UHGV virus genome: UHGV-0216241
DNA length: 14,922 nucleotides
Direction: 5' to 3' (one strand)
Origin: a virus
Every line of letters begins with the position of its first letter. The stretch's first letter is position 1. This document shows positions 6,299 to 13,360 of the stretch, piece after piece. Made by a program: the position numbers and the translations under genes. The notes under the pieces were generated by a model, which had not been told where the DNA came from, ran no database searches, and worked only from the letters and a program-made list of their open reading frames with translations.

Positions 6299-8218
6299 TT
6301 ATTTAAAGAAGCCACCACCTTTACGCGGCCTTATTACTCGTTTTGGAGTTGGCTTAGTTGGTGTTTCTTCTGTATTTACTTCTTTATTTAGTCCTGCTTT
6401 CTCTTTTTGTTTCGCGTTGTATTCCCTTAGTTGTCGGAATGGTTGACTACCTAATTTAGATAGATACCACTGGAAACATATAAGCGAGTAATTAAGACAA
6501 TCAAGGGTTTCATTTCTCGCCGAACTAACTTTCTTCACCCATACCCAGGCACCAGCCTTTATTACTCGCTTCTCGGAAGTAAGCTGAATAAAGTAATCAT
6601 CCGGTACTGAATGACTGAAATGTATTTGTACTTCCTTACTATTTTCACTATCGGATACAGCACGGTTGAGTAATTGACGGACGTTTGATTTGCCTAAGTT
6701 TACGTTAAGGTTAATCAGGGAGTGACCACCAGCGGTACTACCTTTGAATAATGGGTTAGAGTTAGACGTACCACCCTTGATAGGTTTAAAGATAGTAGAA
6801 TTACTGCAATAGCGATATACGGTACTAGTTGCGTTGCCGTTACTACTATCGACGAATCCAGCTAATACTTTAAGTGGTTTACCCGAACGTGTTTTCAATG
6901 GGGCGTTAGCAAAGGCCGTTAGCTTATTCCATGCTGGGGCTTCGATCTTCGTACAGTCAATTGCGTATATACTGCGATGATCTAAAACATAGAGATTCTT
7001 CTCACTTACTCCTAGTGTACTTATCTCCAATCTGTCAAGCTGCTGGTCAACGCCGAATACCACCCCTAGTACGTCATCGGGGATATTATTGATATCTATT
7101 TCACTATCTCTTAGGTTCTCCAATAATACTAAATCATGGTCGGTATTCTCTTTATCAATATATGGCAGTCCTAGTACGTTGTTATAGAATGATGCCAGGT
7201 CAAATGTATAATGTGCTTCTGCAAAGTCTGCTACAATTGATTTTATGGAATTGATGGGGGAATAGAGTCTAGATATGTGATAGCCCATTATATCCGTTAC
7301 TTCCGGTGCTGTTACTATCCATTCACCTTTACGGATCATTCGTACACGTTCTGCTTCTGTTATTACATTATTACACTTAGGACATTCTAGCCTTGCAGTG
7401 TCTGCATCTGGAATACGACGGCGACCACCTTCAATAATTTTCCATTCGAATTTAACGTTTTCGAATACCATTTCGTGTGAGTGGTTACAGTGGGGGCAAG
7501 GTACATAAAACTTCTGTTTATTACTTTGTTCGTACTGTTGGGTAATCAGGTCATGCTCATCTAGTGGAGTAGAACAACACATAATCAGGGGGTTACTGAA
7601 TGCTTTCGTTCTCTGTTCTGCCAGCTTCAAGGGATTGCCTTCTTCGCCGTCGGCGTTGACATTGGATATCTCATCCAAAAATACGCGAGGGGCCGTTAGA
7701 CCACGTAGTGAAGCACTACTACCCAATGACAGGAAGTAGGTAAACGTTCCATCTAAATTTTGTTGTGTCTTGTCATTGTTCGTATAGTTCTTGTCGTTCT
7801 TATTACTAACGAGATTTTTCAGTACCGAACATGCTTCGATGACTGCTTGCCATTTACCAGTCCTAAATTTACTAGTAGTACCACCAGTAGCACCACCAAA
7901 GATCATGTTACTAGGATCATTGGCTAGGAAGTAGTACATACTATTCTGTAGTACCGTTGTTTTGAGGAGTTGAGCACTGCTCATGAGCACCACCTTACGG
8001 ACGCGTGGATTTACGATATCGTTGATGGGTTTATGCTGAAAGGCGAATAATTTGACACGCTGCCCCTGTAGTTCGCCGTCCGGGAAGACTAGATTACTCT
8101 CTACCCATTCAGCGGGTAGTTGTTTCTTCGGAGGTAGGATCGACTTCGCCGCCCTCGTTAGTATCTTCATCATCTTCTGGTAGTTGGTCTTCATATGTTC
8201 CCTCATATTCATAGCCAC
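6299..8218 (-). CDS. Terminase large subunit (GpA-type, cos phages)
   Basis: 639-aa ORF, the size of lambda gpA. Has a Walker-A-like FGGATGGTTSK, two Cys pairs (CPHCNH...CPKCNN) and sits directly after the small-subunit gene. The start may be an internal Met (8194, 8173 or 8170); any choice overlaps the small-subunit gene. Confidence 0.8.
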   Translation of the reverse strand: MAMNMREHMKTNYQKMMKILTRAAKSILPPKKQLPAEWVESNLVFPDGELQGQRVKLFAFQHKPINDIVNPRVRKVVLMSSAQLLKTTVLQNSMYYFLANDPSNMIFGGATGGTTSKFRTGKWQAVIEACSVLKNLVSNKNDKNYTNNDKTQQNLDGTFTYFLSLGSSASLRGLTAPRVFLDEISNVNADGEEGNPLKLAEQRTKAFSNPLIMCCSTPLDEHDLITQQYEQSNKQKFYVPCPHCNHSHEMVFENVKFEWKIIEGGRRRIPDADTARLECPKCNNVITEAERVRMIRKGEWIVTAPEVTDIMGYHISRLYSPINSIKSIVADFAEAHYTFDLASFYNNVLGLPYIDKENTDHDLVLLENLRDSEIDINNIPDDVLGVVFGVDQQLDRLEISTLGVSEKNLYVLDHRSIYAIDCTKIEAPAWNKLTAFANAPLKTRSGKPLKVLAGFVDSSNGNATSTVYRYCSNSTIFKPIKGGTSNSNPLFKGSTAGGHSLINLNVNLGKSNVRQLLNRAVSDSENSKEVQIHFSHSVPDDYFIQLTSEKRVIKAGAWVWVKKVSSARNETLDCLNYSLICFQWYLSKLGSQPFRQLREYNAKQKEKAGLNKEVNTEETPTKPTPKRVIRPRKGGGFFK

Positions 8219-8663: not shown

Positions 8664-8978
8664 GTGATTTCCTATTCACTTATTATTCACTTTCCATTGA
8701 TTGGTATTTTCTATCTATTTCGGTACTGATAGGTTTTATCTATAAATTTGTTTGTTTTATGTAAAATTTCTCACGTATTTTTATTATAACTCGCGGCCAA
8801 ACTTCGCATAGTTTGGCATATTCAGGAGAACCTACCGAAAGTCAAGGGAGTGATTCCATTTTTTTATCTTTTTTTTGATATAAAGCACAAATTGCACAAA
8901 ATCTTGATAGCTTCTACCTATCAGTACCGAAGGATACCATCATCCTATTATTCACTGTTTATGCATTGTTTATGCAAT
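8664..8978. other. Candidate packaging-site region (cos/pac), non-coding, upstream of the terminase small subunit
   Basis: ~315 bp with no credible ORF. Contains a 16-bp inverted repeat (8719-8734 TTCGGTACTGATAGGT and its reverse complement at 8916-8931), a perfect 8-bp-stem hairpin (8796-8817), two T8 tracts (8858-8865, 8869-8876) and a direct repeat TTTATGCA x2 (8953-8971). Location matches cos/cosB in lambda-like phages. Confidence 0.45.
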
Positions 8979-9365
8979 CTACTTGAGTATCACCATATTA
9001 CTAACGATTACATCACAACGATAAGAGATAGGCAGACCATCTACGGTACGGTACTGTAGGATCTCGTCGCGTAGTTCTCTTAGTCTGTTTAGGTGTGGTA
9101 GTTCGCTACCGTTGAATCTATCTAGTTCTCGTATGGGGTAATTAGTACGGCCTATGGTGAAGCGTGAGTAGTTTAATGTAATGTATTTATACTTAAGCGT
9201 TAGTGTATAGGTATCTATGAATAGCTCGTAACCGTCCTGTGTGATGATATGAGCGGTTATTAGCTTATCCTTGCGTGATGGTATGTATCCTGATTCCTGT
9301 CGGCCTGTGGTGCTTTCTATGGCCTTATACGTTCCATCAGGGAAGTGTAGGTAGATTGTATTCAT
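8979..9365 (-). CDS. Hypothetical protein (128 aa)
   Basis: ORF with an AGGAG Shine-Dalgarno upstream of ATG 9365. No recognisable motifs. Confidence 0.55.
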   Translation of the reverse strand: MNTIYLHFPDGTYKAIESTTGRQESGYIPSRKDKLITAHIITQDGYELFIDTYTLTLKYKYITLNYSRFTIGRTNYPIRELDRFNGSELPHLNRLRELRDEILQYRTVDGLPISYRCDVIVSNMVILK

Positions 9366-12747: not shown

Positions 12748-12941
12748 AGCTTAATGTTGACGCGTTTTCTAGTAAGTAAGCTCAATAGTGCTTCGTTATA
12801 GGTAGTGTGCCACTTCTTACCATCACTAAAAGGCTTGTTGATGTGTCGGGGATGCTTAGACATAGTGACCGCCCCTACCTTTCGGTCGTGATCGTCGAAA
12901 ACTTCGGTTATAAGTCCACCTGCAATACAACTAATACGCAT
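12744..12941 (-). CDS. Hypothetical small protein (65 aa)
   Basis: ORF in an operon-like array; weak GGGA Shine-Dalgarno. Confidence 0.45.
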   Translation of the reverse strand: MRISCIAGGLITEVFDDHDRKVGAVTMSKHPRHINKPFSDGKKWHTTYNEALLSLLTRKRVNIKL

Positions 12942-13022
12942 GTAAAGATCCCAGCAATGAAGAAAAAGAAATTTGCAGCCGCAAGGTAAGTAAAGGTTAA
13001 TTTTTTTTCATAGAGTGTCCAT

Positions 13023-13063
13023 ATTAACACTACTAGTACATTTTCGGTACTAGTAGTGTTAAT
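13023..13063. repeat. Perfect 17-bp inverted repeat (palindrome) with 7-nt spacer
   Basis: ATTAACACTACTAGTAC (13023-13039), spacer ATTTTCG, then GTACTAGTAGTGTTAAT (13047-13063). Located 4 nt after the stop of the 97-aa gene. No adjacent U-tract on the minus strand. The spacer carries the recurrent TTCGGTACT motif. Confidence 0.6.
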
Positions 13064-13066
13064 TGA

Positions 13067-13360
13067 TTAATGTACGTTAGTAACTTCTTCGGATACTACT
13101 TCTAGTAATGAAGTGAAAGCACGTTCACCATCGAATCGGGCAATAGTGATCTTATCGGTTACACTCTTGGGTAAATTGATGTTCTTTTCCCAATGGAACA
13201 AGCCACCAGACATAAGAAACATACTGAATAATTCACGCTCATTATGACGGGAACTAATTACTATATGAAACATTCCCGTTACACGATTATCAATCTCGTT
13301 GATCTTGAATCCTAAATCATGTGCCTTAATGACCAAATCAGTAGATACACCCTTAGACAT
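13067..13360 (-). CDS. Hypothetical protein (97 aa)
   Basis: ORF with a GGGAG Shine-Dalgarno 9 nt upstream; its start overlaps the stop of the upstream 28-codon ORF. Confidence 0.55.
   Translation of the reverse strand: MSKGVSTDLVIKAHDLGFKINEIDNRVTGMFHIVISSRHNERELFSMFLMSGGLFHWEKNINLPKSVTDKITIARFDGERAFTSLLEVVSEEVTNVH

Follow-up and report, generated by a model that had tools for sequence, protein, structure and literature searches.

A candidate cos region preceding the terminase genes in a temperate Enterobacteriaceae phage lineage

Genes and features of the locus

The window, by which we mean the whole 14,922-nucleotide stretch of virus genome UHGV-0216241 that was analyzed, has all its substantial ORFs on the minus strand. 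Read in that direction, the gene order is a 128 amino acid ORF, a non-coding gap, the small terminase subunit (TerS), the large terminase subunit (TerL), a head-tail joining protein, a lambda-family portal, and a protease-capsid fusion; the features of the gap and its neighbors are collected in Table 1. Because all genes are on the minus strand, the gap is upstream of TerS on that strand only (TerS runs from 8663 to 8109), and the initial annotation, which had placed it directly upstream of the small terminase, was thus right for the minus strand and wrong for the window's plus orientation. The G+C content of the gap is 31%, versus 39% across the window, and searches of the gap with ARAGORN (tRNA) and Rfam at gathering thresholds gave zero matches. 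In the mechanical list of ORFs, TerS and TerL overlap by ~110 nt (8109-8218); in RefSeq-annotated Escherichia coli relatives, the two genes overlap by 77-120 nt.

Table 1. Features in and around the non-coding interval preceding TerS; roles are as proposed in the text.
Feature	Position	Strand	Remarks
Non-coding interval	8664-8978	read on minus	315 bp between the 128-aa ORF and TerS
128-aa ORF	9365->8979	minus	no family match; ends at 8979, precedes the interval
TerS, 184 aa	8109..8663	minus	small terminase subunit; phrog_57, E 2e-19
TerL, lambda gpA type	6299..8218	minus	large terminase subunit; Pfam GpA_ATPase 9.4e-50, GpA_nuclease 1.6e-41; phrog_15 5e-130
Two GTGAATA repeats, 11-bp phase	8673..8692	minus	adjoin the TerS ribosome-binding site; in right-flank types A and B, not in short types
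Proximal arm	8719..8734	minus	ACCTATCAGTACCGAA on the coding strand; exact repeat; 71-86 nt downstream of island start; proposed R3-position TerS site
AT-rich segment	8747..8788	minus	blocks AAAAT.CGTG.GATTTTT and AAAACAAACAA; conserved by column conservation; position comparable to lambda I2; 3' half of a dyad plus T run in relatives
GC-rich island, 17 bp	8789..8805	minus	GAAGTTTGGCCGCGAGT in the window, GAGTTTYCGCCGCGAAT as family consensus; proposed cosN
Perfect 8-bp hairpin, 6-nt loop	8796..8817		arms GCCAAACT (8796-8803) and AGTTTGGC (8810-8817)
cosQ-like heptamer AGGTTCT	8827..8833	minus	within conserved TAGGTTCTCC at 8825-8834; 21 nt upstream of island
T7 and T8 runs	8859-8865, 8869-8876		read as A tracts on the coding strand; to the left of the cosQ-like heptamer
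Distal arm	8916..8931	minus	TTCGGTACTGATAGGT on the coding strand; 126 nt upstream of island; in the variable left module with the 128-aa ORF; proposed accessory or dispensable copy
Three TG(C/A)ATAA repeats, 11-bp phase	8946..8978	minus	directly past the upstream ORF's stop codon; oriented like the GTGAATA pair next to TerS

Relatives of the locus and exchange of its flanks

Upstream regions were gathered from IMG/VR (14 loci), one GTDB genome, metagenomes (10 loci), two E. coli genomes, and contigs with an identical TerS; the collection comprised 24 distinct sequences, which were aligned on the TerS strand and are designated here, where they need to be told apart, by L numbers. The TerS family is small and confined to the Enterobacteriaceae. 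A scan of genome contigs returned one species only, Pseudocitrobacter faecalis, and the element is present in two E. coli chromosomes that are 91-92% identical to it. Over this region, CP050221.1 and the window have the same sequence. No match to the region (megablast and blastn) or to TerS (tblastn) was found among 50,697 phage records, nor was there any to the region in a plasmid search. The best TerL match among phage records, phage DCP80, is 37% identical and has no known relation to this cos. In L016 (E. coli WGI31CT, NZ_CM135810), the locus is part of a ~30-kb prophage in which almost all genes share one direction; at 29157-31483, this prophage adjoins a large serine recombinase and disrupts yegD, which carries a partial annotation.

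The alignment has a single non-coding block common to all 24 relatives, extending from ~30 nt left of the island through to TerS. Within it the GC-rich island, 142 nt upstream of TerS, is at a fixed position and nearly invariant in 24/24, and the flanks diverge on both of its sides. Most relatives have an 11-bp palindrome, TTCGC-C-GCGAA, inside the island, relative to which the window copy, TTGGCCGCGAG, is less symmetric. Nine further exact matches to the island in IMG/VR were judged to be chance, as they lie in coding regions of unrelated, G+C-rich contigs and no TerS relative is found downstream.

Sequences to the left and right of the island occur in several combinations. L047 combines the left flank of L003 (100%) with the right flank of L046 (100%); L046 itself has the left flank of L002 and a window-type right flank, and L041 the left flank of L005 and the right flank of L010. 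L006, L037, and L038 share a right flank and have three different left ones. The alignments show that left and right flanks reassort independently and switch at the island, which is thus a constrained block at a module boundary. Reassortment alone is of course no proof of a physical end, because crossovers are expected in any shared block. Contig ends were used as a proxy for physical ends: none in IMG/VR, the metagenomes, or the identical-TerS contigs falls inside the island, and those recorded lie 58, 164, and 257 nt to its left, or within TerL.

The contigs with an identical TerS are especially informative about what travels with the terminase. From island to TerS they are almost identical to the window, with a single mismatch in the proximal arm, and their left side is unrelated and contains an OLD-family nuclease gene in divergent orientation. 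In L047 (730-2550) this gene encodes a 606 amino acid OLD-family nuclease (DUF2813, AAA, TOPRIM) on the opposite strand and replaces the 128-aa ORF module; the same arrangement is seen in L048, L051-L054, and L056. One genome with an OLD-type sibling prophage is GCA_047644635.1. Because the OLD gene replaces the 128-aa ORF module immediately left of the island, a slot for defense-type cargo would adjoin the candidate cos. One metagenome contig, L044 (OGJN01000019.1), retains the island and has a TerS frame that is broken after residue 27, with stop codons close behind; it is probably a decaying prophage.

A cosQ-like heptamer at constant spacing

The heptamer AGGTTCT is separated from the island by 21-22 nt in most left-hand types, which are unrelated to each other over the remainder of the left flank. 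Three types carry ATGATTCT in its place. AGGTTCT equals GGGTCCT at 5/7 positions, and in L042 the heptamer is GGGTCCT, the same as lambda 48473-48479, which we take to be the lambda cosQ heptamer and which lies 23 nt before the chromosome end. The cosQ element is 7 bp and highly conserved (PMC4669245).

The spacer that separates heptamer and island is variable in sequence. L016 has AGCAAA...TTTTCGCT over spacer and island, where L050 has GGCAAA...TTTTCGCC; the difference is a paired G-C to A-T change, as might be found in a bulged stem formed by spacer and island, and it is a single case.

The initial annotation had drawn attention to a perfect hairpin at 8796-8817 and to two T8 tracts as parts of a packaging site. 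The hairpin does exist and is perfect, with its 3' arm (8796-8803) inside the island and the other in the variable 21-nt spacer, but in L001, the closest relative (TerS 98% identical), and in other relatives it is absent from this register; it is thus lineage-specific, and the comparison does not support a packaging role for it. The tracts are in fact one run of seven and one of eight T residues. They are not conserved among relatives, and as seen from TerS they lie beyond the island, whereas the lambda bend sites I1 and I2 are between cosN and Nu1 (PMC4856287); the proposal that they form a lambda-like bend site is not supported.

Short repeats in 11-bp phase, all in the same orientation, flank the inverted repeat pair on both outer sides. 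All three matches to TTATKCAY in the window are inside the interval, and L010-L012 have three phased copies per side.

The conserved dyad and transcriptional control

Between the island and the proximal arm is the conserved AT-rich segment, and thereafter sequences up to TerS are lineage-specific. The island's right half can, in many relatives, pair with ATTCGYGG ~10-12 nt downstream, after which there is a T run (GATTTTT or TTTTTT in relatives, AGAAATTTT in the window). About half of the relatives reach -8 to -13 kcal/mol with this hairpin, the window only -3.5 kcal/mol, and L014 has a different stem sequence yet keeps a hairpin and a T6 run. Across relatives the helix is 80.6% paired, as against 23-48% in slid controls; a covariation check detected no compensatory double changes, so the helix is indistinguishable from a dyad in the DNA.

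The right half of the island and the T run of many relatives could equally be a transcription terminator, and to that extent the cos reading is weakened. The conserved block might on this account serve mainly in control of the late operon, the dyad CCGCGAAT...ATTCGYGG and its T run being a terminator or attenuator towards TerS, the arms and the 11-bp-phased repeats being operators bound by a phage regulator, and cos being incidental or located elsewhere. An early/late boundary before TerS is indeed expected from the near-uniform gene direction in the prophage, TerS would need its own promoter in those siblings whose left neighbor is the divergent OLD gene, and the GTGAATA repeats adjoin the TerS ribosome-binding site; the stronger hairpins, including that of L014, are also what the idea predicts. 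In the window lineage, however, the hairpin is weak, scans of the minus (coding) strand of the window detected neither a terminator nor a sigma-70-like promoter, and the stem shows no compensatory double change. Conservation also reaches the unpaired GAGTTTY part and the spaced heptamer, for which a terminator has no need, and a gpA-type terminase would still require a cos, for which there is no other conserved non-coding candidate near TerS. We regard transcriptional control as an unlikely main function of the block.

The 16-bp inverted repeat

The longest exact inverted repeat in the interval is 16 bp: TTCGGTACTGATAGGT at 8719-8734 and its exact reverse complement at 8916-8931, 181 bp apart, precisely as first described. 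Allowing mismatches, the repeat is 28 nt long (82%). In 300 mononucleotide shuffles of the interval, the longest repeat was 12 bp and 0/300 reached 16 bp; a 16-bp repeat in 315 bp is far above chance expectation. When the whole window was divided into 315-nt tiles, 16 bp was exceeded at one other place only, near 13040. There, the perfect 17-bp palindrome ATTAACACTACTAGTAC-N7-GTACTAGTAGTGTTAAT (13023-13063), the longest inverted repeat of the window, spans the overlapping end of a 40 amino acid ORF (12908..13030, minus) and the gap before ORF 13067..13360 (minus); it looks like an operator or a terminator.

Relative to the island, the arms are placed on opposite sides, at -126 and +71. The proximal arm is kept at 15-16/16 positions in every prophage with the window TerS, including those with different left flanks, and its outer half, AGTACCGAAA, recurs at a similar distance in types L003, L013, and L014; by this distribution, it belongs to the TerS-linked side. 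Distal copies at 14-16/16 were found in only six sequences (the window, L001, L002, L016, L046, and L050), and these six are the ones in which the 128-aa-ORF left module is joined to the window-type right module. In the remaining types, a repeat across the island is no better than in shuffled controls, and in the siblings with an OLD nuclease on the left and an identical TerS, the best match to the distal arm is 11/16, equal to the 95th percentile of the null. The cross-island inverted repeat was therefore rejected as a family-wide trait, being restricted to one combination of left and right modules. Because it is missing in siblings with an identical TerS, the distal arm is part of the exchangeable left module and is untied to this terminase, which would not need it.

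A third near copy of the proximal arm, in direct orientation, is found within the 128-aa ORF (ATCCTACAGTACCGTA, 9047-9062). It matches at 11/16 positions in the window and at 13/16 in L016, L046, and L050, at or just over the shuffled maximum, and may be due to chance within coding sequence.

The small terminase subunit

The N-terminal 48 residues of TerS are almost invariant across the family. Residues 10-37 give a weak match to HTH_23 (19.1 bits, below the Pfam cut-off of 24.6), and the only PDB profile match, also weak (E 0.027, residues 12-37), is to the HTH of RppC (6hlk). RppC is a PICI protein that redirects cos-phage packaging. The AlphaFold model, made from a 13-sequence alignment, shows a strand-helix-turn-helix-strand at residues 10-41, but its pLDDT of 59.5 is too low for a fold assignment. 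At lambda-type cos sites, the small subunit binds the R sites through an N-terminal winged helix-turn-helix. TerS had no detectable gpNu1 sequence match in the Pfam and PDB searches.

At the position of the proximal arm, right-flank types differ strongly and share just a short AGTAC/GAAA-like element, found at +65 to +87. Because the TerS N-terminus is near-invariant while the proximal sequence varies, the case for the whole 16-mer as the TerS site is weakened; the true recognition element may be shorter than the 16-mer, or may be contained in the conserved AT-rich blocks.

Comparison with the cos sites of lambda and N15

The lambda site is ordered cosQ, cosN, I2, and cosB (R3, I1, R2, R1), and precedes Nu1/A. 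A degenerate and dispensable R-like sequence, R4, lies left of the lambda cosN, within ~30 bp. It resembles the distal arm in being an R-like copy on that side of cosN from which the right chromosome end is formed, and differs from it in that the distal copy is exact and is 126 nt away. The lambda sequence has R3 at bp 49-64, R2 at 109-124, and R1 at 151-166, with R1 and R2 forming an exact 16-bp inverted repeat.

Several features of the present locus correspond to lambda: a site directly upstream of TerS and a gpA-type TerL; a conserved, partly palindromic, GC-rich block ~140 nt before the start of TerS (190 nt in lambda); a GGGTCCT-like heptamer 21-22 nt before that block (23 nt in lambda); past the block, an AT-rich segment containing runs of A and T; and a 16-bp repeated element ~70 bp in, which like R1/R2 is part of an exact 16-bp inverted repeat. 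The differences are equally clear. Only one copy of the 16-mer is on the TerS side, the second being beyond the presumed nicking site, and the two are separated by 181 bp rather than 26 bp. The complex lambda cosB, with three R sites, the middle one inverted, and an IHF site, has no equivalent here; the IHF consensus WATCAANNNNTTR was sought by eye in the TerS-side sequence, with no match. The suggestion in the initial annotation of lambda-like terminase-binding repeats has a precedent in R1/R2 of cosB, but the arms flank the island instead of both being in cosB, and they occur as a pair in one sub-lineage only.

The island is also not a lambda cohesive end, sharing with it only the 7-mer GCGGCGA, on the opposite strand. 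A narrow definition of "lambda-like phages" requires 12-nt 5' cohesive ends clearly identical to GGGCGGCGACCT (PMC4669245); by that definition the present phage is excluded, GCGGCGA being all that it has in common with the lambda end, but it may function in the same way.

N15, with its "simple" cosB, provides a further parallel. It has a single critical R3 at bp 48-59, and an inverted, closely matching rR2 at bp 249-260 that is non-critical, is embedded in the TerS gene on R3's side of cosN, and is found in close relatives only (PMC4669245). The locus described here likewise has one site at the R3 position and an inverted close copy ~200 bp away; unlike in N15, the second copy is on the opposite side of the presumed cosN and in a separately inherited module.

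A cos region as the preferred interpretation

Taking these observations together, we consider that 8664-8978, read on the minus strand, is probably, though with appreciable room for doubt, the cos region of a ~30-kb temperate Enterobacteriaceae phage with a terminase of the lambda gpA/Nu1 type. In favor are the gpA-type TerL, the lambda-type portal, and TerS directly downstream; the fact that the sole non-coding sequence shared by 24 relatives holds a near-invariant island; the independent reassortment of flanks at that island; and the fixed spacing of a heptamer that resembles lambda cosQ and is an exact copy of it in L042. That no contig ends in the island and that the island is unlike the lambda cohesive end both weaken the interpretation. 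The initial annotation had proposed a cos or packaging site with a repeat pair flanking a hairpin and T tracts; the location, preceding TerS and a gpA-type TerL and containing the conserved block, agrees with our analysis, and the details do not. The conserved core of the candidate site is the 17-bp island together with its cosQ-like partner, and neither the hairpin and T tracts nor the repeat pair.

Towards TerS, the order of putative elements would be the cosQ-like heptamer (8827-8833), the 21-nt spacer, the island (8789-8805), the AT-rich segment (8747-8788), and the proximal arm (8719-8734). TerL is predicted to introduce staggered nicks inside the island; if the lambda distance from cosQ to the nick holds, nicking would start 1-2 nt into the island and the end of a 12-nt overhang would also be contained within it. 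The AT-rich segment would be comparable to lambda I2. In the lineage of the window, the TerS recognition element at the position of R3 in lambda and N15 would be the proximal arm, which we place there because it is 71-86 nt from the start of the island, versus 49-64 for lambda R3 and 48-59 for N15 R3. The distal arm would be a second, inverted copy carried by the variable left module, and any role of it as a TerS site would be accessory, as for N15 rR2 or lambda R1; the inverted repeat of lambda R1/R2 and the non-critical inverted copy of N15 are the precedents for regarding it as accessory or dispensable. By analogy, then, the arms would constitute at most one R3-like site and an accessory copy.

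Other explanations of the repeat

Even with cos at this place, the repeat might have no function in packaging, the distal arm having arisen as a neutral side effect when the left module and the cosB side recombined or underwent gene conversion, with TerS recognizing neither arm. Such an origin fits with the limitation of the repeat to one left/right module combination, with the absence of the distal arm alongside an identical TerS, and with the variability of the proximal sequence next to an invariant TerS. Substitutions are matched between the arms only in part: L046 and L050 have TTCTG against TTCGG, and L002 has a G-to-T change in both arms. Yet 14-16/16 positions have been kept in six sequences while the sequence surrounding and separating the arms diverged (to 43-57% ungapped identity on the left), which suggests selection or recurrent homogenization, and the position of the proximal arm matches R3. 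We find a pair with no packaging function improbable.

At the other extreme, both arms could be docking sites for TerS, situated ~100 bp to either side of the nick and bridged by an oligomeric TerS that wraps a ~200-bp loop containing cosQ and cosN. Recognition sites would then flank the cut, and the left site would travel with exchangeable cargo (ORF or OLD nuclease) and confer a packaging advantage on it. This idea strikes us as quite improbable.

That the arms pair in the late mRNA, as a long-range stem around ~180 nt through which TerS expression or RNA stability is controlled, is very unlikely. The minimum-free-energy fold of 8700-8950 (minus) does use the arm-arm stem, with z = -5.4, but this score is a trivial consequence of a perfect 16-bp repeat. 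The paired change in L002 keeps one base pair, at the same time as L002 has one G-U and one C-A mismatch and L001 has one G-U; L046 and L050 have two arm-arm differences each (a T-C mismatch and a G-U wobble). One arm is altogether missing from siblings whose TerS is identical and whose TerS-proximal leader is nearly so, and there is no Rfam match.

Finally, the suggestion that the arms are terminal inverted repeats of a ~213-bp MITE-like insertion, which stems from the exact 16/16 inverted repeats bounding a short non-coding segment, can be discarded as extremely improbable, as there is no target-site duplication (the abutting bases are CTAT before one arm and GGAT after the other, and a 10-bp direct repeat, TATTATTCAC, lies 28 and 14 nt off the arms rather than next to them), no second copy in the window, one copy per genome in 2/5426 E. 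coli genomes and always at this position in the prophage, none in plasmids or phages, and an interior that is the most conserved part. The presence or absence of the bounded segment in relatives, which had been put forward as a check, also speaks against an insertion: the interior is conserved throughout, and the polymorphism seen in siblings removes the left arm only, together with the whole left module.

Significance

Our current understanding of cos packaging is unchanged by these data. The site would be an ordinary lambda-style one in an unstudied phage lineage. If confirmed, it would be the packaging site of a small, uncharacterized lineage of ~30-kb temperate phages of E. coli, Citrobacter, Klebsiella, Salmonella, and Pseudocitrobacter, with chromosome ends predicted within 8789-8805; this would serve annotation, the assignment of genome start coordinates, and cos-based transducing vectors. 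The lineage also offers a natural experiment, in that identical terminase genes are found whether or not the distal repeat is there, and the cargo directly beside cos varies and includes an OLD-family defense nuclease. It could be used to probe how far left of cosN the sequence required by a gpA-type terminase extends.
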